A DNA stretch of 32,000 nucleotides. Origin: Dubosiella newyorkensis. Lineage in GTDB: Bacteria; Bacillota_I; Bacilli_A; Erysipelotrichales; Erysipelotrichaceae. The position numbers and the translations under genes are program-made. The stretch spans positions 1-32,000 of the forward strand of contig NZ_MPKA01000062.1 in NCBI RefSeq assembly GCF_001945605.1, in the 5' to 3' direction. Shown here in pieces: positions 6,590 through 32,000 of the stretch. The notes under the pieces were generated by a model. That model saw nothing but the letters and a program-made list of their open reading frames with translations, did not search any database and was not told the origin of the DNA. Positions within the stretch are counted from its first letter, which is position 1, and each line of letters begins with the position of its first letter.

Positions 6590-6617
6590 ATTTTAGCACT
6601 TTATTTCTTTGAGTAAA
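6590..6617 (-). promoter_or_regulatory. Candidate sigma-A promoter overlapping the MuF stop, reading into the structured leader
   Basis: - strand: TTTACT (6617-6612), 16 nt, TAAAAT (6595-6590). Confidence 0.35.
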
Positions 6618-9012
6618 GTATTTCGGCTTTCTTGATAATTTTAGATGTTTTTCTTTCCGACATCATCCAACATGTGATTATTGAGCTAAGAAAATCTGGG
6701 TGATCCTCATCATTATTTAACCTTAACACAGCAAGGATATATTTACCTTCTGATTCAAAACGCTTTAATATCTTTCCTGTATTTTCTTTTTTATCTGCAA
6801 GAATATAATCTGGATCTTTTAAAGCCGTACATAGCTCACCCATAACCAACTTGTAAGCTTCAGGGTGCCTTTCAAGAATATGCCTTTTTTGTTCTCCGGT
6901 TATGATTATTTTATCTTCTCTAATTTCTCCCTTGATATTCAATAGAGCTTGCTTATTAAATTCAATAAAATAACTGGGCAATCTAACCTCTTTTATCCAT
7001 TGAAGAAGGGTTAATTGATGTAGATCAACCTCTTTTTTCCACTTCTCCCTTTCACTATTCCAATCCCTCCAACTCAGCCCGTGCTTGTCATATGTCTCGG
7101 TCCACTCGTCGAATAGTTTGACCTCTTCGTCGCTCACACCGAAATCCGTGCGCTCGATATAAGCAGAAGTAGAACATCTGCAATTACTAGTTACAAAACC
7201 GTTAGCAATGTATAATGTAGATAAACAGGAGGCATCATATACATGACCAGAAAAAGGCACAACATTGATGAAATCAACGTTATCGAACTTTACAAAAGTG
7301 GGAAAACAGTCAACGAAATTTCTAATATTTACGGCGTTCATAGATACACGATCGAAAGGATTATGAAAGCCAATGGAGTCAAATTGCCTGGAGTCCGTAT
7401 CGATCTCGACAGTACTAAGATCGCCGACCTTTATGTTTCCGGAATGAGCGAAAAAGCCATTTCCGAGCAATTCGGAGTAAGTCGCCCCACGATTCGTAGA
7501 CGACTCCTTGATTCTGGTGTCATAATCAGAACTCAAACGCAGGCTAACCAACTCATGATGAGTAAGAGAACCCGAGAAGAGAATATCCGCAACTCTGAGG
7601 CCGCCCATAATGCCATCAGAGGTTATACCTATTCCAGTGAGGAACTTTGACAACGAGCTTTCAAAAGGCAAAAATCTTTCGTTCAATTTGATAGTGCCTA
7701 CGAGGCTTCTATCGCTGATGAACTTAGAAAAAGAGGAATTAAGTTTATCCCTCAATTCGCCATTGATAAATACAATGTCGATTTCGCTATCGGGGATTAC
7801 ATCGCCCTTGAGGTCTACGGAGGTCACTGGCATTCGAAAGGTCGTCATGCTATTCGATTTAACGATCGAAGCAAAAAGATTTTCGATAGTGGTAGAGCTA
7901 TCGTGATTTGCTGGTTCACCAATAACATCACTACCGACATTACCGCAATAACGGACTACCTTATCTCCCTTGATAAGGTTCTTCGCTTTGACCCAGCCTC
8001 TCGCTGTAAGCATTATGTGATTAGGTGTGACGGTAAGTCGAGCTCCATCGGCCGTTCTAATCTCGACTACATCTCCTGAATATTCGCTTTTCATAATCGC
8101 CTCTGCATCAGGGGCGATTATTTGCGTGTCAGGCAAAACACAATTCGGATGCATAGGCGGAGCGTTCACGCCTGGCTGCATATCCTTCATGTCAAAATGT
8201 TTCCCGTTGATCGCTAAACAATGCGGGCAAGCCGTCCCTAGGGAATGGAACGTATATTGATCGAATCCGTTTTCTTCAAACGATCGGCGCTGCGCTTCCG
8301 TTTGAACCCGTGCCATTTCTGTGATCATCAAACGGTTCGCGTCGTATACGCTCGATTTTATCTTTTTTCGAAGCGTCCGCGCCAATTCTTTTGGATTGCG
8401 TCCCTGAATGAGTCCGGTCGATAAAAGGTTCCCCAGCTCGTTTCTTAATATATCCTGGTGCTTCCAGATCCGGTCGCTCCAAGTCGCGTTGTGAAAGCTG
8501 GCGTTCACGATCGAATGTGCGTAGCGGGCATTGTCATGGACCGTACGACCTAATATACCGGCTTGCCGTTTGAACGTCTCGATCGTGCGCTTGGTCAGCT
8601 TCTCTTCAAAGAAACGCTGCAGTTCGTCGAAGCCGCCGACCAGATGCATTCCGATGTTGGCTTTCAACAGCTCCAGCCGGTTCACCTTCATCGTGAGATT
8701 GTAAAGTCTCATCTCTTCATTGGCCTGATCGGAGAAATTTTTCTCGGCCACATACTTTTTAGCGAGCTCGGCATACGTTTTTATATCCAGTTTAGAGACT
8801 CTTTTTTTCGCTTCTGCATAGGTGATTCCCTCTTTTGTGGCGTATCGAGTGTAGAAATTGTTGATCTGGATCTCGATTTCATTCATCATCTGTCGGTAGA
8901 TGCGTTCGATCTCTTGGCTGTATGTCTTCTCTTCTTGGATATTGTGTTTCCGCTGCTCTTCTTCCCGCTCGCGCCAATAGTCGGCGCTACTTTTCGATTC
9001 CGGCTTCGCCAT
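6601..9012 (-). CDS. MuF / SPP1 gp7-family minor head protein, interrupted by an intein and fused to a C-terminal PBECR-type toxin-like nuclease domain
   Basis: N-terminal part: ...ITEMARVQTEAQRRSFEENGFDQYTFHSLGTACPHCLAINGKHF...APPMHPN|C (MuF domain). C-extein: CRCSTSAY.... C-terminus: ...IIITGEQKRHILERHPEAYKLV...DPDYIL...YILAVLRL (PBECR-like). Follows the portal gene. Confidence 0.85.
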   Translation of the reverse strand: MAKPESKSSADYWREREEEQRKHNIQEEKTYSQEIERIYRQMMNEIEIQINNFYTRYATKEGITYAEAKKRVSKLDIKTYAELAKKYVAEKNFSDQANEEMRLYNLTMKVNRLELLKANIGMHLVGGFDELQRFFEEKLTKRTIETFKRQAGILGRTVHDNARYAHSIVNASFHNATWSDRIWKHQDILRNELGNLLSTGLIQGRNPKELARTLRKKIKSSVYDANRLMITEMARVQTEAQRRSFEENGFDQYTFHSLGTACPHCLAINGKHFDMKDMQPGVNAPPMHPNCVLPDTQIIAPDAEAIMKSEYSGDVVEIRTADGARLTVTPNHIMLTARGWVKAKNLIKGDKVVRYCGNVGSDVIGEPANHDSSTTIENLFASIVKSNSMTTFRMPVTSVDLKGDVIPDSEIDIVFINGELRDKLNSSFSKFISDRSLVGTIKLNERFLPFESSLSKFLTGIGITSDGIMGGLRVADILFSGSLTHHELVSLRLSSDYDTRIKESSTNRGATYSELLGNGFFAHSGNIKVGDLSTVEIDTDSRQFDSIGFHNPFDRVSMNAVNIRNFVDCFPTFVKFDNVDFINVVPFSGHVYDASCLSTLYIANGFVTSNCRCSTSAYIERTDFGVSDEEVKLFDEWTETYDKHGLSWRDWNSEREKWKKEVDLHQLTLLQWIKEVRLPSYFIEFNKQALLNIKGEIREDKIIITGEQKRHILERHPEAYKLVMGELCTALKDPDYILADKKENTGKILKRFESEGKYILAVLRLNNDEDHPDFLSSIITCWMMSERKTSKIIKKAEILYSKK
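7243..7650 (+). CDS. Antisense-nested ORF, part 1: double helix-turn-helix DNA-binding module (homing-endonuclease-type targeting domain)
   Basis: AGGAGG at 7227-7232 and TATAAT at 7211-7216. Two repeats: INVIELYKSGKTVNEISNIYGVHRYTIERIMKANGV and KIADLYVSGMSEKAISEQFGVSRPTIRRRLLDSGV. Ends at an in-frame TGA (7648-7650). Confidence 0.7.
   Translation: MTRKRHNIDEINVIELYKSGKTVNEISNIYGVHRYTIERIMKANGVKLPGVRIDLDSTKIADLYVSGMSEKAISEQFGVSRPTIRRRLLDSGVIIRTQTQANQLMMSKRTREENIRNSEAAHNAIRGYTYSSEEL
7651..8079 (+). pseudogene. Antisense-nested ORF, part 2: Vsr/DUF559-like PD-(D/E)xK nuclease segment, same frame as part 1, with no start codon of its own
   Basis: SAYEASIADELRKRGIKFIPQFAIDKYNVDFAIGDYIALEVYGGHWHSKGRHAIRFNDRSKKIFDSGRAIVICWF fits the DUF559/Vsr-like pattern (E..L...G...Q....Y..DF......ALEV.G..WH......D..R...L...G..V). 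Open from the TGA to the stop at 8077-8079. Confidence 0.6.
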
Positions 9013-25706: not shown

Positions 25707-26058
25707 GAGGTTTTCCTCTTTGGAGAACTTGCTGATAAGCAGCGTCTCCAATTTTTTCAAAGACTGAGTCGATCAGCGACAGCGCTACCCGATATGCTCT
25801 TTCTGCCCCCAAGGCATTCCAATATTCTTCCGACTCGTCTTCCTCTTCGTCTTGCGCATCTAAAACTACAGATAAACGAGCATTCAACTTATCACCAATT
25901 CGAGTCAATTCCGCTAATAGATCGACTCCAAAAGCAGGATCTGCAAGTTCCATATCTCTAAGAGCATGTTCAAAGCCGGCAAAATAAGATTCATTGATAG
26001 ATCCATCTGCCAAAGACCGTGCAGCCATCTGATGTAGCCGTTCAATTTGATTTTTCAT
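25699..26058 (-). CDS. Hypothetical acidic protein
   Basis: ATG at 26058 after GGAGAAAAG. 119 aa. Confidence 0.5.
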   Translation of the reverse strand: MKNQIERLHQMAARSLADGSINESYFAGFEHALRDMELADPAFGVDLLAELTRIGDKLNARLSVVLDAQDEEEDESEEYWNALGAERAYRVALSLIDSVFEKIGDAAYQQVLQRGKPHD

Positions 26059-26284
26059 ACGCTTTTCTCCTTTTCCATTCTTCTTTGTAGCAATCCTCAC
26101 ATACCGCATAGCCGAAGCCTGCAAAGTTGTGAATTTCCAGCGAAGTAAAAGTGTCTCGATACCGAACTGGCTTTCCACAGGCTGCACATACTATCGGAGC
26201 ATTAAGATTTGCGATTGTCACGCTTCCGAGTGGCAACTCATAGGGATCGTACTCGCGGGATTCATAATTCCATTTACCTACCAT
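26042..26284 (-). CDS. Zn-ribbon (CxxC...CxxC) small protein, paralog B
   Basis: WNYESREYDPYELPLGS...IVCAACGKPVRY...AVCEDCYKEE. Confidence 0.55.
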   Translation of the reverse strand: MVGKWNYESREYDPYELPLGSVTIANLNAPIVCAACGKPVRYRDTFTSLEIHNFAGFGYAVCEDCYKEEWKRRKAYEKSN

Positions 26285-26561
26285 TTTGCTTTTCCCTTCT
26301 TGCTCGATTTGCTGCCGTTACTCTCCTGATTTCTTGTATTTCGCATTGTTTACAAACTGCAAACGGCTCATGATCAACATCGAAAATTTCTCTTGAACTC
26401 ACGGCTCTTCCGTACTTTATTTCTTTTCCGCACGAAGCACATTTGATCAAAGTGCGATTTAAAGGGCTGTGATACGGTTCCATTAAGGCGCTTCCTTCTG
26501 GAACTTCGTATGGTTCGTGCTTCTCGGTGAGCGGGTTCCATTTAACGTTTTTTTCTTTCAT
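26274..26561 (-). CDS. Zn-ribbon (CxxC...CxxC) small protein, paralog A
   Basis: WNPLTEKHEPYEVPEGS...IKCASCGKEIKY...AVCKQCEIQE. Confidence 0.55.
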   Translation of the reverse strand: MKEKNVKWNPLTEKHEPYEVPEGSALMEPYHSPLNRTLIKCASCGKEIKYGRAVSSREIFDVDHEPFAVCKQCEIQEIRRVTAANRARREKQNGR

Positions 26562-26584
26562 TTCCTTTCTCCTATCTATTCCTC

Positions 26585-26842
26585 TTAAATGCCGTTTAGT
26601 TCGGCATAATCCTTCCGGATCTTTGTTTCGCTTGTATTAAGCTTCTTGATCAGTCTAGAAACATGGACACCGCCTTCAAGGGCCTTTTTCCCTTCCTTGG
26701 CTACTTCTTCATTGATTTCGTTCATGATCTTTTTTGCGCTTCTATAGCCGCACGGCCAGAATTGTTGGATATCCTGGTTATTGCACCAGCCTTTGACCAG
26801 AAGCTCATAGCGTGCTTTTGCGAGTTCTTTGACATCGGCCAT
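26585..26842 (-). CDS. Hypothetical small protein, possibly DNA-binding
   Basis: ATG at 26842, 9 nt after AAGGAG. 85 aa. Confidence 0.4.
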   Translation of the reverse strand: MADVKELAKARYELLVKGWCNNQDIQQFWPCGYRSAKKIMNEINEEVAKEGKKALEGGVHVSRLIKKLNTSETKIRKDYAELNGI

Positions 26843-26858
26843 TTTTCTCATCTCCTTT

Positions 26859-27050
26859 TTAATACTCATTGATAGATACGATCGGCATGCTCAGCACTCC
26901 GATCATCTCCAAAAACCTTTTAGTAACCCTTCTGCCTCGAGACCATTGCCGTCCCGAGATGTACTGTTTCAAATAAAAGCCGCCTTTGAGATGCGACACC
27001 TCCCAAACCTTGTGGGAGTTGTATGGATCTTGATATCTGATTCTTCTCAT
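26859..27050 (-). CDS. Hypothetical small basic protein
   Basis: ATG at 27050 after AAAAAAGGAGAG. 63 aa. Overlaps the 3' tail of the Bro-N ORF in another frame. Confidence 0.45.
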   Translation of the reverse strand: MRRIRYQDPYNSHKVWEVSHLKGGFYLKQYISGRQWSRGRRVTKRFLEMIGVLSMPIVSINEY

Positions 27051-27378
27051 TTTGTTCTCTCCTTTTTTGATTTCTTTCCTCTCTATTCCAGCGTTTGAAG
27101 CGTTTGGCTTCCTCAAGTTTTGAACCAAATATCAAGCTGTATAAGCCTGACTCCGAAATCGCAATCGCTTTTGTGGGGCTACCGTTTTGGGCGGTTAGAT
27201 TATTTAAATACACTGGTTGTTTATCTTCCGGATCTACATGTTGTCTGATAGCTTTATCCAAATTTGAATATCCTAAAATTCCAGCAACATCTTTTCCAAC
27301 AAAATATGGTTCATCATTGATGATGGTTGTGCGAACTTGTCCGAATTCGTCGTTTTTAAAAATTTGCAGTTCGTTCAT
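26920..27378 (-). CDS. BRO-N domain protein (antirepressor-type), apparently lacking the usual C-terminal domain
   Basis: MNELQIFKNDEFGQVRTTIINDEPYFVGKDVAGILGY...ISESGLYSLIFGSKLEEAKRFKRW is a canonical Bro-N domain. The last ~55 codons are low-complexity. Confidence 0.65.
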   Translation of the reverse strand: MNELQIFKNDEFGQVRTTIINDEPYFVGKDVAGILGYSNLDKAIRQHVDPEDKQPVYLNNLTAQNGSPTKAIAISESGLYSLIFGSKLEEAKRFKRWNREERNQKRREQNEKNQISRSIQLPQGLGGVASQRRLLFETVHLGTAMVSRQKGY

Positions 27379-27389
27379 AAGTCTCCTTT

Positions 27390-27590
27390 CTAATCCACCC
27401 TGATTACGAAATCATCAGGTTTCTTGTTTAATGCGCTGCAAATGGCTAAGAACTCGTTTACGTCGCATTTTCTTTTTCCTGACAAGATTTTCGAAAGTTT
27501 TTCTTCCGAAATCCCTGCTCTTTTTGCAACGTATTTTTGCTTGATTCCGTTATCATCCAAATATTTCTTCAATTTATCTTTATCGAACAT
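27390..27590 (-). CDS. cro: Cro-like XRE-family HTH repressor
   Basis: 66 aa with the HTH KQKYVAKRAGISEEKLSKILSGKR. Divergent from the CI-like gene. Confidence 0.8.
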   Translation of the reverse strand: MFDKDKLKKYLDDNGIKQKYVAKRAGISEEKLSKILSGKRKCDVNEFLAICSALNKKPDDFVIRVD

Positions 27591-27613
27591 ATATGCCTCC
27601 TTTCTGTGTTGAG

Positions 27614-27677
27614 TTTCTTAACACGCCATTACTATAACGTGTATTTTCTTAACAGTCAAGAAAGAAATGTTAAGAAA
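27614..27677. promoter_or_regulatory. Operator sites of the genetic switch (TTTCTTAACA x2 direct plus one inverted copy)
   Basis: TTTCTTAACA at 27614-27623 and 27645-27654. TGTTAAGAAA at 27668-27677. A variant TTTCTTGTTA at 27687-27696. Confidence 0.55.
27631..27659 (-). promoter_or_regulatory. Early lytic promoter (PR-like) for cro
   Basis: - strand: TTGACT (27659-54), 17 nt, TATAGT (27636-31). Confidence 0.6.
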
Positions 27678-27690
27678 TTCAACATTTTTC

Positions 27691-27719
27691 TTGTTATAGG
27701 GTATCTTTCGGGATAAAAT
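27691..27719 (+). promoter_or_regulatory. Repressor-gene promoter (PRM-like)
   Basis: TTGTTA (27691-96), 17 nt, TAAAAT (27714-19), then SD AAAGGAGAG and the ATG at 27744. Confidence 0.55.
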
Positions 27720-27743
27720 ACAAGCAAGAAAGGAGAGCTAAAG

Positions 27744-28469
27744 ATGAACAAATACTTAATTGAGCGCATTAAAGAAGCCCGAAAAGATTGCGGAATGAGT
27801 CAAAAAGAAGTTGCTGACATCCTTGGAATTAATCGTTCTACGATAGCAAGTTATGAAACCGGAAATTCAGAACCTGATATAGATACGTATATCAAACTTT
27901 GTAAAATCTATAACGCCAACTATGTTGATATCCTTAACAAAGCCTATGAATTACAGGAGATTGCCCAATTTACCCCAACTATCGAAGAAGAATACATTAT
28001 CGAAAAGATTCGCGATTTAAACGAAGAAGACAAAGTAATGATAGTTTCTTTAATTGAGCGTTTGACTACTAAATCCTCTTTAAAAGTCGAAGACGTGCCG
28101 ATTCGCTATGTAACGCTGCCTGCTTACGGATATGCCCCGTCGGCTGGTACCGGAAACTATATGCCTGATGACATTCCGGCAAGCACGATCCAGGTTCCGG
28201 AGTCTCCATCGGCCGAAAAAGCTGATTTCGTTGTTAGGGTCAGTGGCCATTCGATGGAACCGAAATTCATGGATGGTGATCTCGTCTTGGTTAAAAAAAC
28301 TGAAGTGCTTGATCCTGGCAAGATCGGTATATTTTCTGTGAATGGCGAAGCGCTGATCAAAGAGTACTTTCCTGATCGGCTGCATTCGCTCAATGCAAGA
28401 TACAAAGACATCGACCTTAATGACGGCGATACAGTGCGCTGCCTAGGCGAAGTAATCGGGAAATTATAA
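27744..28469 (+). CDS. cI: CI-like repressor: N-terminal XRE HTH plus C-terminal S24 (LexA-like) autopeptidase
   Basis: HTH MSQKEVADILGINRSTIASYETG. S24 motifs VSGHSMEP and GEALIKEY. Confidence 0.9.
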   Translation: MNKYLIERIKEARKDCGMSQKEVADILGINRSTIASYETGNSEPDIDTYIKLCKIYNANYVDILNKAYELQEIAQFTPTIEEEYIIEKIRDLNEEDKVMIVSLIERLTTKSSLKVEDVPIRYVTLPAYGYAPSAGTGNYMPDDIPASTIQVPESPSAEKADFVVRVSGHSMEPKFMDGDLVLVKKTEVLDPGKIGIFSVNGEALIKEYFPDRLHSLNARYKDIDLNDGDTVRCLGEVIGKL

Positions 28470-28527
28470 AAGAAAAGAGGAAAATGAGCCCCTGTCTGGA
28501 ATAAAAAATATCTTCCCTGTTCCACAA

Positions 28528-28740
28528 ATGCATAAAGTACCCTTAGTCGGAACGATCTCGTGTGGTGAGCCGATCTACATGGACGAGGAGCGCGGCGATT
28601 CGGAACTGCTCAATAAGTATTTGGAACTGATTCAAGATGAACAAGTCGGTGTCCTATTTGATAAGGTCGGGAAGCTGACTCCCAAACAACTCAAGGCTGT
28701 GTTGACTGTGATTGATGCGATTGATAAGGAAGAAGATTAA
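28528..28740 (+). pseudogene. Possible remnant of a second repressor (S24-type N-terminal motif on a 70-aa ORF without an SD)
   Basis: It begins HKVPLVGTISCGEPI, like the start of an S24 domain (PL.G.I.AG.P). No recognisable RBS. Confidence 0.3.
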
Positions 28741-28746
28741 ATAATT

Positions 28747-30192
28747 ATGAAAAATAACGTCGAAAGAAGAGAAATCAGTTTAAGTTCGCTGGTTATATTT
28801 GCAGAAAACCCGAGACACGAACCTGCGGAAAATGAAGAAAAGGCTATGGAACTCTTATGGATAATAGTTGGAAGTCAAAAAATGGTAAATCTAGCTAAAG
28901 ATATTGCTGAAAATGGATTAAATCCCAACGAACTGCCTATTCTAGTTCCTCTCGCCAGCAAAAAAGGAAAATTCGAAGTTTATGACGGGAATAGAAGGTT
29001 GACAGCATTAAGAATACTGAGTGATCCTGACAAATACGACTTTATCTCCACAAGCCAGAAAAGCAAGCTCAAGAGCATCGCGCAAACAAACTTGAGTCGG
29101 ATCCCGAAAAAAGTCTTTGCTTGCATTACCAGTCAAGAGCACGCTCTGTCTCTTATAAAAAAGACCCATACTGGTGTGGATAGTGGTCGAGGCCGTACGC
29201 CCTGGGGTGCAGAAGAAATTCGAAGGTTTGAATTAAAATATGGCACCAGGAAAGATACAACCGATTATATTCTTGAAAAAGCGAACGAATACTTTGAAAT
29301 CGATAATCTAACCAAACGACTTAGTATCACCTCGATTCGAAGAATCTTTTTTGCATCGGTCAAAAATGCTTTAGGATTCGACGAAAAGAATCCTGCATCT
29401 TTCACAAAAGATAGGATTTGTCTCGCGATAAAACTCATAGAAAAAGCAGCAGAGGAGGACAATAGCGGAAATAAAGTATCGAGATGGCATGCAGCGGATG
29501 CTGAGAAAATGTTAATGCCTATTATAAAAGAAGAAATAATAAGCCGCCCGCTCTCTCCTATACCTGAGCCGATCGCGCAAAATTCTGGTAAAACATCTAC
29601 AAATAATGCCACAAAAGGCAATAAAGACAAAAGCGATAAAAAAGAAGGCAATTCGAACAAGTCGAAAGAAGATAAACCAGAACCTCCCAAAGTTCCTTAC
29701 TTTATGGAAGGCTTGGATTTAAGCGGCTTATCTAAAAACGAACAAGGGAATCACGGGATTATTTCAATTGGAAATGAATTATTGAAGATCTCTAAAAACA
29801 AAGCAGTCGATAATTATCCATTGGCATCAGCAATGCTTTTGAGATCGCTTGTCGAAGCGGTATTGATCCGTCACCTAAAAACAAAAACCGACGAAGAAGG
29901 AAAACCTCATTGGAGTCATCTAGCTAATGAGACGAATGGCTATCCATCTTTATCTAAAATCATCAAATACTATGGTAAGTGTCATCAAGGCCTCTTAGAT
30001 CACACTCACAAAAGAACATTTGATCAATGCTTAGGAGATCAAAGCAAGGTAATCGAACCAATTAATTTATTGATCCACCACCCTGAAAAATTCCGTGAGC
30101 CCGAATATAAAATTAAAGATTGGCCAAAACTTGGTCTACTTGATTTGTTAAACTACCTGATTAAAGAAATTTCTGGCCAAAATGCTATTTAG
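28747..30192 (+). CDS. ParB/Srx-fold N-terminal domain protein with a K/S/N-rich linker and a helical, possibly HEPN-like, C-terminal domain
   Basis: N-terminus ISLSSLVIFAENPRHEP...KFEVYDGNRRLTALRIL (ParB NPR and DG.RR motifs). Linker NSGKTSTNNATKGNKDKSDKKEGNSNKSKEDKPEPP. C-terminus ...ASAMLLRSLVEAVLIRHL...IEPINLLIHHPE. Confidence 0.65.
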   Translation: MKNNVERREISLSSLVIFAENPRHEPAENEEKAMELLWIIVGSQKMVNLAKDIAENGLNPNELPILVPLASKKGKFEVYDGNRRLTALRILSDPDKYDFISTSQKSKLKSIAQTNLSRIPKKVFACITSQEHALSLIKKTHTGVDSGRGRTPWGAEEIRRFELKYGTRKDTTDYILEKANEYFEIDNLTKRLSITSIRRIFFASVKNALGFDEKNPASFTKDRICLAIKLIEKAAEEDNSGNKVSRWHAADAEKMLMPIIKEEIISRPLSPIPEPIAQNSGKTSTNNATKGNKDKSDKKEGNSNKSKEDKPEPPKVPYFMEGLDLSGLSKNEQGNHGIISIGNELLKISKNKAVDNYPLASAMLLRSLVEAVLIRHLKTKTDEEGKPHWSHLANETNGYPSLSKIIKYYGKCHQGLLDHTHKRTFDQCLGDQSKVIEPINLLIHHPEKFREPEYKIKDWPKLGLLDLLNYLIKEISGQNAI

Positions 30193-30224
30193 CGTTTATC
30201 CTTATCACGAGGAGGGTGAAAAAA

Positions 30225-31094
30225 ATGAATAATTCACCACTAAGATATCCTGGAGGAAAACATAAGCTGTTCCGTTTTGTCCAGCAGCTCATCAAAGAAA
30301 ACGGCTGCATAACATATATTGAACCTTTTTGTGGGGGTGCTGCAATAGCTTTAGAACTATTGAGAACCAACACTGTACAAAAAATCATAATGAACGATTT
30401 GGACCGCGGCATCTATCTAATGTGGAAAATGATTCTGGAAAGACCTGAAGAATTAATTGAAAAAATGGACAAAACAGAAATCACGTATGCAGAGTGGGAA
30501 CACCAGAAATGTGTTCGAGCTAATTTGGAAGAGCATTCCGATCTTGATATAGCGTTCTCTACCCTTTTCCTTAATAGGACTAATCGCTCAGGAATCATCG
30601 ATAAAGCAGGCCCTATTGGGGGTAAAAAACAGGATGGGGCTTATAAGATCGGCTGTCGATTCAATAAGGAAAAACTGGCCAAAAAAATCCGTTTAATCCA
30701 TTCAATGAGGAATAGTATTAGTTTGTATAATTTGGATGCCCGTGATTTCTTAGAAAAAGTCGTTGCTAAAGAAAAAAACGCATTTACGTTTTTCGATCCA
30801 CCCTATTTCCATAAAGGGCAGGAACTCTATTCAGATTTTTTAGGGTCTGAAGACCACCAGCAGCTTGCCACGCTCATAGTTGATCATCTTAGGCATGAAA
30901 AATGGATTGTTACATATGATAATGTCCAGGAGATCAAGGATTACTATTCACCAGTCAATGGGTTCGAGTACAGCCTTCAATATACGCTGCAAGAGAAGAG
31001 AAAAGCCACAGAATTGATATTTTTTTCGCCTGATGTAAGAATTCCTAAGTTGTCAAAATATATACATTTCATAGGTAAAACTCCCTTTCGATAG
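30225..31094 (+). CDS. D12-class (Dam-family) N6-adenine DNA methyltransferase
   Basis: LRYPGGKHKL, EPFCGGAAIAL (SAM binding), NDLD, FFDPPY (catalytic DPPY). The ATG at 30225 lies 8 nt after GGAGGG. Confidence 0.85.
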   Translation: MNNSPLRYPGGKHKLFRFVQQLIKENGCITYIEPFCGGAAIALELLRTNTVQKIIMNDLDRGIYLMWKMILERPEELIEKMDKTEITYAEWEHQKCVRANLEEHSDLDIAFSTLFLNRTNRSGIIDKAGPIGGKKQDGAYKIGCRFNKEKLAKKIRLIHSMRNSISLYNLDARDFLEKVVAKEKNAFTFFDPPYFHKGQELYSDFLGSEDHQQLATLIVDHLRHEKWIVTYDNVQEIKDYYSPVNGFEYSLQYTLQEKRKATELIFFSPDVRIPKLSKYIHFIGKTPFR

Positions 31095-31195
31095 TACCAA
31101 TAGTTTATTGGATATAGGGAAACAGGAAGGTTAATAATATTTCAGACACCGATATTGTCATAATTGGCTTTATTATCAAAAAAGGATGTGATGGA

Positions 31196-31456
31196 ATGAC
31201 ATATGAGGATTTTTTAAGATTTAATCAAATTAGTGTTGTTTTTGAACCGCTTCCTTATTCGATCAAGGGCTTCTGCAGGAAGAAGGGCGAATGGATCGTG
31301 ATCGTACTGAATGCCCGCTGCGATCTGGCTGAACAGAGGCGTGCGCTTGATCATGAGCTTGCCCATGCGCTGAATGGTCATTTGGATATGTACGACTATG
31401 AAGAATGCGAGAGTGCTGTTGCTTTTCAGAGCGGACAACGGAAAAAGAAAGGATGA
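31196..31456 (+). CDS. Small ImmA/IrrE-like zinc metalloprotease
   Basis: ...IKGFCRKKGEWIVIVLNARCDLAEQRRALDHELAHALNGH is the HExxH context typical of ImmA/IrrE. Only 86 aa. Confidence 0.6.
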   Translation: MTYEDFLRFNQISVVFEPLPYSIKGFCRKKGEWIVIVLNARCDLAEQRRALDHELAHALNGHLDMYDYEECESAVAFQSGQRKKKG

Positions 31457-31462
31457 ACAAGG

Positions 31463-32000
31463 ATGCCTGTCTATAAAGATGAAAAACGGGGGACTTGGTA
31501 TGTCGATATCCATTATACCGATCAAAACGGAAAAAGCCGACATATAACGCGTAGAGGGTTCAAAAGAAAAGGAGATGCCAAAGCGGCTGAAGAGGATATT
31601 TTGAGAAATCTGGCGGATAATCTTCCCTCTTCAATGACTCTCGATGAACTGGTTGATCAGTTCAACAAAAACTATGCGATCGAAGGAATAAAAGAGTCGA
31701 CAATGATCAGTAATTATTCGGTCTATAAGCAGCATATTCATAAGCAGCTCGGTTCCACAAAGGTCAAGAGCATCAAAGCTAAAACTGTAATGGACTGGAT
31801 GAGCGATCTAATCGCCAAGGAAAAACCGGACGGAAAAAAATATTCAGAAAATACAATCAATAATACGAAAATGACTTTATCGACGTACCTGAGCTATGCC
31901 GTCAAATTGGAGATCTTAGAATCCAACCCATGCCACAAGGTTAAAAAGTACAAAGATCAAAGCCATATGAGCCCAAAAACGGATGCGGAAATCAATTTTT
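31463..32000 (+). CDS. int: Tyrosine recombinase (phage integrase), N-terminal part; continues beyond the window
   Basis: MPVYKDEKRGTWYVDIHYTDQNGKSRHITRRGFKRKGDAKAAE is an Arm-type N-terminal domain, followed by a SAM-like core-binding region (...TINNTKMTLSTYLSYAVKLEILESNPC). The frame is open to the end of the window. Confidence 0.85.
   Translation, partial: MPVYKDEKRGTWYVDIHYTDQNGKSRHITRRGFKRKGDAKAAEEDILRNLADNLPSSMTLDELVDQFNKNYAIEGIKESTMISNYSVYKQHIHKQLGSTKVKSIKAKTVMDWMSDLIAKEKPDGKKYSENTINNTKMTLSTYLSYAVKLEILESNPCHKVKKYKDQSHMSPKTDAEINF

Follow-up and report, generated by a model that had tools for sequence, protein, structure and literature searches.

A divergent PD-λ-5-type gene pair in the repressor-integrase slot of a Dubosiella newyorkensis prophage

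INTRODUCTION

What does a prophage gain from two cargo genes placed between its repressor and its integrase? We address this question for a locus in a mouse-gut prophage of Dubosiella newyorkensis, contained in a 32,000-nucleotide stretch of contig NZ_MPKA01000062.1 (positions 1 to 32,000 of the forward strand; hereafter the window). Gene A of this locus encodes a protein with a head resembling ParB and sulfiredoxin (Srx), and gene B encodes a DNA methylase. We find that the pair is a divergent copy of PD-λ-5, an already validated anti-phage system, and that the system type itself is not new.

PD-λ-5 is among the 21 systems that a functional selection in E. coli yielded (Vassallo et al. 2022, Nat Microbiol, PMC9519451). 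It originates from strain ECOR7 (proteins RCQ13837.1 and RCQ13838.1), and its cloning required a host lacking mrr (PMC9519451). The system affected all but one of ten phages, T-even phages most strongly, and it also restricts λvir and T7 (PMC9519451). Its discoverers list it as "ParB/HEPN, methyltransferase" in their Table S1 and call it "RM+Abi". Their HHpred analysis of PD-λ-5A gave ParBc at 96.4%, DUF4145 at 35.6%, and HEPN_RiboL-PSP at 8%, which leaves the support for a HEPN domain thin (PMC9519451).

An original prediction for the window, made from the DNA letters without database searches, had proposed a candidate defense or modification module composed of a ParB/Srx-domain protein with a possible HEPN-like C terminus and a D12 N6-adenine methyltransferase. 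In doing so it reconstructed, from the sequence alone, the architecture that the discoverers gave PD-λ-5. Its further suggestion, that the system is different from described ones, does not hold: PD-λ-5 was validated in 2022, PADLOC models for it exist, and both ParB-HEPN fusions and operons of HEPN, ParB, and methylase genes were catalogued in 2013.

RESULTS

Both genes match the PD-λ-5 families

Searches against PADLOC, one of the checks that the original prediction had called for, name both genes PD-Lambda-5. Protein A is matched by 25 PD-Lambda-5_A models, the best with E=7.5e-53 (amino acids [aa] 6-291), and model PDLC03998 extends the match to aa 7-392 (1.1e-48). Protein B matches PD-Lambda-5_B (PDLC04018) over its full length, at positions 4-282 of 291, with E=2.5e-110. 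The proposal of a defense module within a prophage's lysogeny region is borne out by these matches, protection itself having been demonstrated for the E. coli system. Among the PHROGs, A matches phrog_9592 (6e-35), a family of "unknown function." The gene A product is 100% identical to a D. newyorkensis hypothetical protein and carries the UniRef label "ParB/Sulfiredoxin domain-containing."

A presumed founding-type locus of the E. coli system lies in the P2 hotspot of E. coli KL53 (locus L021). This locus was reached indirectly, through methylase DNA; a word-indexed profile search for the A family surfaced no E. coli member. It encodes a 501-aa hypothetical protein (WP_001563630.1) and a "DNA adenine methylase," and the pair spans 2,460 bp between replication endonuclease and portal genes; the ECOR7 system spans 2,461 bp. 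Aligned with hhalign, the A-family profile covers residues 3-500 of the 501-aa protein with a probability of 100% and E=2.4e-47. Protein B and the KL53 methylase share 41% identity (E=3e-72). We conclude that the two Dubosiella genes are almost certainly members of PD-λ-5 families A and B.

Gene A belongs to a large family that is strictly paired with a methylase

An exhaustive search with the A profile identified 7,080 clusters (50% identity) at E≤1e-3 and 2,459 at E≤1e-30. The best 150 of these clusters are nearly all full length, at ~420-520 aa. Close relatives of the window protein number only five sequences (45-70% identity), and the others are 17-25% identical, indicating that the Dubosiella clade is a divergent branch. 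Pfam-A does not cover the family; among 105 full-length members, GmrSD_N weakly touches 6 and ParB_N weakly touches 3. Outside PADLOC and PHROGs, the A family is effectively unannotated in domain databases. A scan of a genome collection with the single A protein returned 72 pattern hits, none of which was confirmed.

Gene A is followed immediately downstream, on its own strand, by a gene for a DPPY-bearing D12 methylase in all 14 of the independent loci compared. These loci are the window, the sister Dubosiella prophage described below, three other Bacillota-type prophage contigs, Pseudomonas, Sanguibacter, Solirubrobacterales, Sphingomonas, a Chloroflexi Mu-like prophage, two metagenomic contigs, Paracoccus phage Pkon1, and E. 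coli KL53. They cover Bacillota, Proteobacteria, Actinobacteria, Chloroflexi, and two phages (Pkon1 and the E. coli P2-like prophage). Co-occurrence, which the original prediction had proposed as a check, is strict in this set, and B is not the "orphan" methylase that it had been taken for. B is more conserved than A at every locus (36-82% versus 25-70% identity). In two close relatives, both Bacillota prophages, the pair occupies the same slot downstream of a CI-like repressor, and an integrase gene then follows in one of them. The pair is also found outside phages, at chromosomal sites such as one beside an AbiE system. Neither the window nor the fetched loci have a ParA partner annotated beside A.

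Two apparent departures from this pairing were rejected. A metagenomic contig (L008, 5343..5867) carries an intact A beside a shortened, 174-aa methylase. Compared with its 15x twin (L007), this 8x-coverage contig has most of its called genes shortened or split, and we read the case as probably reflecting assembly frameshifts rather than a natural A without B. Yersinia phage HQ103, which is P2-like (L012, 227..2327), encodes a 373-aa protein whose similarity to PD-Lambda-5_A models is confined to their N-terminal ~280 residues (best, 6e-29) and which lacks the helical tail; a 329-aa protein with no PADLOC match follows, and there is no methylase. HQ103 is thus not a PD-λ-5 carrier, since it has only the N-terminal module of A and a partner of another kind; its locus may represent another system that makes use of this ParB-like module.

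Gene B has the motifs of an N6-adenine methyltransferase

Pfam MethyltransfD12 matches B at 88.7 bits, against a cutoff of 22 (E=6.8e-25, positions 11-246), in keeping with the class originally assigned to it. The S-adenosylmethionine motif EPFCGG and the catalytic motif FFDPPY are present, and both are kept in all 14 partner methylases. Judged by its sequence, B has every motif of an active N6-adenine DNA methyltransferase of the D12 class. It fails the Dam equivalog TIGR00571 (74.6 bits versus a cutoff of 114.85), and its nearest solved relatives are 7m6b (6.5e-21) and DpnII M1 (4e-8). Mrr restricts N6-adenine-methylated DNA. The need of E. coli PD-λ-5 for a host without Mrr therefore implies that B methylates DNA in vivo.

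The same methylase subfamily also occurs with another partner. In other E. coli prophages, a PD-Lambda-5_B-type methylase (E=1.9e-121 at L019) is paired with a 565- to 577-aa "AAA family ATPase" instead of A (L019 2880..5519, L020 1941..4654, and L022 3416..5976, from E. coli L65, MS21324, and isolate 624). The L019 ATPase, the sole one scanned, is OLD/PtuA/AbiL-like and resembles the HEC-04, AriA, PtuA, GajA, and AbiLi ABC ATPases. These pairs are integrase-proximal or lie in the P2 hotspot, and both gene orders occur. Sharing of the B subfamily with an ABC ATPase would be expected if the methylase were a generic self-marking cassette.

Protein A combines a ParB-like head with a helical tail

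The full-length AlphaFold2 model of A (mean predicted local distance difference test score [pLDDT], 87) has a folded region at residues 1 to ~270, a disordered linker, and a helical C-terminal domain at residues ~330-478, as in the three-part layout first proposed. Foldseek matches residues 1 to ~270 to CTP-bound ParB, Noc, KorB, and PadC with probabilities of 0.98-1.0 (7bm8, 7ng0, 6sdk, 8qa8, and 6ryk; E values of 1e-3 to 3e-2), and sulfiredoxins are matched as well. The alignments to ParB, Noc, and KorB run over ~250-280 columns and hence include the middle region. Box I is formed by E20-N21-P22-R23-H24 (ENPRHEP, aa 20-26) and Box II by G81-N82-R83-R84 (YDGNRRLTALRIL, aa 79-91), whose GNRR aligns to GFRR of PadC. 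Among 153 diverse family members, N21, R23, N82, R83, and R84 are 100% conserved, and all are kept in the window protein. The fold matches and the invariant boxes agree with the original assignment of A as a ParB/Srx-fold protein.

Sequence models recognize this head poorly. Pfam ParB_N (PF02195) gives no hit on the window protein, and the sole Pfam hit, GmrSD_N, is subthreshold at 13.7 bits versus a cutoff of 33.2. By Foldseek, BrxU is a nonmatch to the N-terminal module (probability, 0.07-0.11). Profiles of the full family and of the C-terminal domain, run with hmmsearch against PDB sequences, yielded only a weak PadC match. A 2025 survey shows that the nucleotide bound by ParB-CTPase folds (CTP, ATP, or GTP) differs between families and that binding requires the Box II arginine; the survey does not mention the A family (PMC12704722). 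On the strength of motif conservation and of that survey, the intact ParB-type pocket of A is predicted to bind a nucleoside triphosphate (NTP).

The middle region is equally well conserved: H141, G147, W153, and R199 are present in 100% of the 153 members and are kept in the window protein. We consider this region to be probably the DNA-binding or substrate-recognition part of the protein. The linker that follows varies in length and sequence across the family, and its pLDDT falls below 50 at residues 279-305.

Modeled alone, the C-terminal domain reaches a pLDDT of 90.1 and a predicted template modeling score of 0.88. Its two best PDB matches are both the HEPN toxin HepT (6m6u and 7bxo; TMt of 0.59 and 0.56, probabilities of 0.91 and 0.69, ~150 columns). 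HEPN-clan Pfam models give no hit on the C-terminal domain of the window protein, DUF4145 matches 2 of 20 family C-terminal domains (best, 0.066), and a BFVD viral fold search returned nothing interpretable. Neither Pfam nor fold comparison detects an HNH/DUF1524 nuclease tail in A. Three residues stand out by conservation across the 153 members. R366 (83%, with Trp in the remainder) and E370 (97%) share one helix (ASAMLLRSLVEAVL, aa 361-374), and H444 (99%) lies on another (IEPINLLIHHPE, aa 436-447). With ENPRHEP, YDGNRRLTALRIL, and the FFDPPY of B, these two helices complete the motifs quoted in the original prediction, all of which are present. Its view of the tail stands insofar as the domain is helical, resembles HEPN, and lacks an intact Rx4-6H motif; the HEPN assignment is unproven, and we refer to the tail as HEPN-like. 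That this tail is the catalytic effector we consider somewhat less likely than not.

A sister prophage has a disrupted A and an intact B

In the sister Dubosiella prophage (L013 3740..7967; also L014 and L015, in 16 contigs from several samples), an IS200/IS605 element interrupts gene A exactly at residue 137 and encodes a 134-aa Y1 transposase and a 379-aa TnpB. The split leaves a 153-aa N-terminal fragment and a 345-aa C-terminal fragment, with the break just before the invariant H141 motif. The B protein of this prophage is intact (298 aa) and 82% identical to that of the window. That the killing half (A) can be lost while the protecting half (B) stays fits restriction-modification (R-M) logic.

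The two Dubosiella prophages also reveal an edge of the cassette. Their DNA is 99.4% identical up to window position ~28577 (27300..28577) and then 75-78% identical across A-B, indicating a recombination breakpoint inside the 70-aa open reading frame (ORF) upstream of A, at the left cassette edge. The first 26 codons of this ORF match a 123-aa stand-alone S24 peptidase of L013 (BLASTP, 21/26), and the rest is unrelated. On this sequence pattern, the A-B cassette appears to be exchanged between prophages as a mosaic unit. The 70-aa ORF has no family hits in profile scans. It was rejected as a third component of the system, being a chimeric remnant that shares no homology with the ~70-aa ORFs located upstream of A in L002 and L004.

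Locus and prophage setting

The features of the locus are collected in Table 1. Genes A and B share a strand with the CI/LexA-like repressor gene upstream of them, and the 32-nucleotide (nt) gap between A and B holds the ribosome-binding site of B. The mechanical ORF of gene B (30216..31094, +) begins with a GTG at 30216 and overlaps the spacing of the AGGAGG box. The ATG at 30225 is the likelier start, since AGGAGG lies 9 nt upstream and public calls on identical contigs give 289 aa. With this adjustment, the two ORFs are present as first described. Pfam and PHROG matches likewise confirm the setting between a CI-like repressor and ImmA-like and integrase genes. The gap between the repressor and these genes is less simple than the two-gene, AT-rich insert that had been described, because it contains three ORFs, including the 70-aa ORF. 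Its AT richness is weakly true: the GC content of A and B is 38.3%, compared with 40-42% in the immediate flanks, 43.7% in the host flank, and 46.7% in the window.

Table 1. Features of the PD-λ-5-type locus, in window coordinates
Feature	Position	Strand	Basis or remark
CI/LexA-like prophage repressor (context only)	27744..28469	+	Pfam HTH_3 4e-15, Peptidase_S24 5.2e-21
Chimeric ORF, 70 aa	28528..28740	+	Between repressor and gene A
Gene A, PD-λ-5A homologue, 481 aa	28747..30192	+	ORF list
ParB/Srx (ParB-CTPase fold) N-terminal domain of A, aa 1-~100	28747..29046	+	Foldseek, conserved Box I/II
Helical middle region of A, aa ~100-270	29047..29556	+	H141-x-G143-x3-G147-x-G149-x3-W153 loop, R160, R199
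K/S/N/P-rich low-complexity disordered linker of A, aa 271-317	29557..29697	+	Composition, pLDDT
C-terminal helical-bundle domain of A, aa 318-481	29698..30192	+	HEPN-like, trio R366/E370/H444
Ribosome-binding site of gene B, AGGAGG	30210-30215	+	Read directly from sequence
Gene B, PD-λ-5B homologue, 289 aa	30225..31094	+	Likelier ATG start
M78/ImmA-like metallopeptidase ORF, 86 aa, HELAH	31196..31456	+	Pfam Peptidase_M78 3.4e-4, below cutoff
Tyrosine integrase, 5' part	31463..32000	+	Pfam Arm-DNA-bind_4 3e-12, Phage_int_SAM_3 3.4e-8

The integrase gene runs off the window. It encodes 386 aa in full-length contigs (full gene in L016), where host genes then follow, and it marks the integrase-proximal end of the prophage. 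Elsewhere the window consists of a siphovirus-type prophage with portal, large terminase, Mu-F-like head protein, DNA polymerase A, VapE-like primase, and SNF2 helicase genes. A megablast search of positions 26000-32000 against a phage collection gave zero matches.

Several neighboring genes have features of their own. The 86-aa M78/ImmA-like ORF scores 20.8 bits in Pfam against a cutoff of 22 and matches the metalloprotease family phrog_87 (4.3e-7). It may be a truncated or minimal ImmA-type antirepressor protease, adjoining a repressor that has its own S24 self-cleavage domain. In the 803-aa Mu-F-like head morphogenesis protein (6601..9012, -), an intein splicing domain at aa ~295-607 is accompanied by a nuclease-type domain, PBECR2 (Barnase/EndoU/ColicinE5/RelE-like), at the C terminus, which is an unusual pairing in a minor head protein. 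Two neighboring, paralogue-like ORFs on the minus strand of the early lytic region, 26042..26284 (80 aa) and 26274..26561 (95 aa), have two CxxC pairs each (CAACGK...CEDC and CASCGK...CKQC), which suggests tandem zinc-ribbon proteins.

DISCUSSION

Proposed function

That the pair serves a defense function in its native host we regard as clearly likely. The fuller reading, in which the pair is a two-gene anti-phage system of the PD-λ-5 type, borne by a prophage and most likely following R-M logic, is probable on the evidence above. Taken by itself, a self/non-self logic like that of R-M systems has the balance slightly in its favor. According to this proposal, A and B would be expressed in the lysogen along with the repressor, as suggested by their position just downstream of it, on the same strand and opposite to the lytic genes. 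B would methylate adenines at some target sequence in host and prophage DNA and so mark self. With its NTP-gated ParB-like head and its helical middle region, A would bind DNA and distinguish incoming DNA that lacks methylation from self, and would then destroy nucleic acid via its HEPN-like tail or a ParB-type nuclease center. Superinfecting phages would be stopped, possibly with an abortive-infection (Abi) component.

A more specific version is speculative, and we think it rather unlikely as a whole. PD-λ-5A might be a restriction enzyme of an uncharacterized kind, in which an NTP-gated ParB-type clamp loads on or scans DNA, reads the adenine-methylation mark of its partner, and cuts nucleic acid with a noncanonical HEPN-like center formed by R366, E370, and H444, in place of a classical restriction-endonuclease fold. 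The methylase would then be an exchangeable self-marking cassette, used also by the unrelated ABC-ATPase effector in E. coli prophages.

Several observations weigh against the proposed R-M-type defense system. Some concern its identity: protection was demonstrated for the E. coli system only (PMC9519451), and the Dubosiella copy is known from its genes alone. The identity between A and the KL53 A protein is low (BLASTP, 25%, E=7e-20), residues 393-481 of A fall outside every PADLOC A model, and the KL53 locus is equated with the ECOR7 founding type by its P2-hotspot position and span, with no accession match. Others concern the effector. No DNase fold is recognized in A. The HepT matches are nonsignificant (E values of 0.63-1.5) at 12% identity, and the other structural hits are mostly generic helical bundles. 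HEPN-clan models match 2 of 105 full-length members, weakly (DUF4145 in one and Csm6-HEPN in one), and the canonical HEPN Rx4-6H motif is absent from A, where E-P-I-N-L-L-I precedes H444 with no Arg 4-6 residues upstream. Promoter and terminator scans gave counts at shuffle expectation; they were dropped as operon evidence, and cotranscription with the repressor is inferred only. The split A of the sister prophage is a single evolutionary event that is also compatible with an A that is independent of B. Finally, the protection given by E. coli PD-λ-5 is greatest against T-even phages, which have heavily modified DNA. Such a preference is unusual among classical restriction enzymes and hints at a different trigger or a route of the Abi type.

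Such a route would be taken by an Abi or toxin-antitoxin-like module in which A is a latent HEPN-type RNase toxin freed by a phage cue and B is a neutralizer, a regulator, or a second independent layer. It would suit the protection against T-even phages better than DNA restriction does, and it agrees with the discoverers' "RM+Abi" label, with the best structural matches of the C-terminal domain being HepT, the toxin of the MntA-HepT toxin-antitoxin system, and with the documented role of HEPN domains as a back-up suicide layer inside R-M operons (PMC3710099). We nevertheless consider it unlikely. The Rx4-6H RNase motif is missing, the HEPN assignment is nonsignificant by both sequence and fold, and an invariant ParB NTP pocket and middle motif would go unexplained in a simple RNase toxin. 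Further, the methylase is elsewhere paired with an unrelated ATPase effector, as suits generic self-marking, and to our knowledge a DNA methyltransferase is not a known type of antitoxin. The T-even preference also speaks for a type IV-like, modification-dependent sensor, in which A attacks modified phage DNA and B serves another purpose, such as shielding prophage DNA from restriction by host or competitor systems. The DUF262 heads of GmrSD, BrxU, and SspE fall in the ParB/Srx superfamily, as does A, and GmrSD_N is the sole Pfam hit of A. That hit is well below threshold, however, BrxU does not match, and the HNH/DUF1524 tail is missing, so that the analogy drawn in the original prediction survives at the superfamily level only. 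Because λvir and T7, which lack hypermodified bases, are also restricted, and because the 14 of 14 A-B synteny, which includes chromosomal nonphage sites, is not expected of an independent anti-restriction gene, we judge this sensor improbable.

The remaining explanations alter the purpose of the pair. R-M pairs are known addiction modules, and the A-B cassette, which is integrase-proximal and exchanged as a mosaic unit, could primarily stabilize the prophage: loss of the element would dilute B methylation, A would kill, and defense would be a by-product. There is no direct counterevidence to this idea, which presupposes the same R-M mechanism and differs only in the selective benefit. The persistence of the split A in many samples implies that the prophage is stable without A, and we give selfish stabilization as the primary role very little weight. 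The most ordinary explanation, already named in the original prediction, is a phage ParB-like partition or regulatory protein beside an anti-restriction Dam-type methylase, with no role in defense. It can point to the resemblance of the N-terminal module to ParB, Noc, and KorB, to the UniRef name, and to the fact that phage ParB-methylase associations are common (PMC12704722). It finds no support in the data assembled here and is hardly credible: both proteins match models built from an experimentally validated defense system, the loci examined show no annotated ParA beside A, Pfam ParB_N gives no match to A, the pair is known outside phages as well (for instance, beside AbiE), and B falls below the Dam cutoff.

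Read as a PD-λ-5-type defense system, the locus matters little as a discovery, the system type having been found and validated in 2022 and included in the PADLOC library. It extends the range of PD-λ-5 to prophages of Erysipelotrichaceae, a family of the mouse and human gut, where the pair is a mosaic cassette in the repressor-integrase cargo slot. In a family of ~7,000 clusters at 50% identity, the remaining interest lies in mechanism; literature and PDB sequence searches turned up no published mechanistic study or solved structure of the A family. Four handles on it emerge from this analysis: the invariant middle loop, the Arg/Glu/His trio of the tail, the natural variant with A disrupted and B intact, and the reuse of the methylase with an ABC ATPase.

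Comparison with known systems

The closest structural relatives of A residues 1 to ~270 are the CTP-dependent clamps ParB, Noc, and KorB, with which A shares Box I and Box II. A differs from them by the additional invariant H-x-G-x3-G-x-G-x3-W loop, the HEPN-like tail, the obligatory methylase, and the lack of an annotated adjoining ParA. The isolated C-terminal domain finds its best solved match in MntA-HepT (6m6u and 7bxo), whereas the window protein has neither the Rx4H motif nor an MNT-type partner. GmrSD, BrxU, and SspE sense the modification status of DNA; they are modification dependent and need no cognate methylase. Like A, they fuse a nucleotide-binding head of the ParB/Srx superfamily to a C-terminal effector in one defense polypeptide. 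Their heads belong to another family, however, and their tails are HNH nucleases where that of A is a helical bundle, and PD-λ-5A is always paired with a methylase.

ParB-HEPN fusions and operons in which HEPN genes accompany those for a ParB nuclease and a DNA methylase were listed by Anantharaman et al. 2013 (PMC3710099; Saro_3948 type and MAE_28990 family). These families resemble the Dubosiella pair in combining a ParB fold with a HEPN-type helical domain in an R-M context with a DNA methylase. They are defined by Rx4-6H ("mostly active"), a motif that the window protein lacks; for Saro_3948, the comparison is by description.

PD-λ-5 itself corresponds to the Dubosiella pair most fully. 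Both are prophage-borne two-gene operons with the same gene order, in which A has a ParB-like head, a variable low-complexity linker, and a helical tail and B belongs to the same D12 subfamily. The C-terminal domain of the Dubosiella clade is longer (164 aa versus ~135-145 aa), and at several strongly conserved positions the clade's residues differ from the family consensus (L136 instead of W, K233 instead of D, and M255 instead of Y). Its location differs as well: the Dubosiella pair occupies the repressor-integrase slot of a siphovirus-type Bacillota prophage rather than the P2 hotspot.

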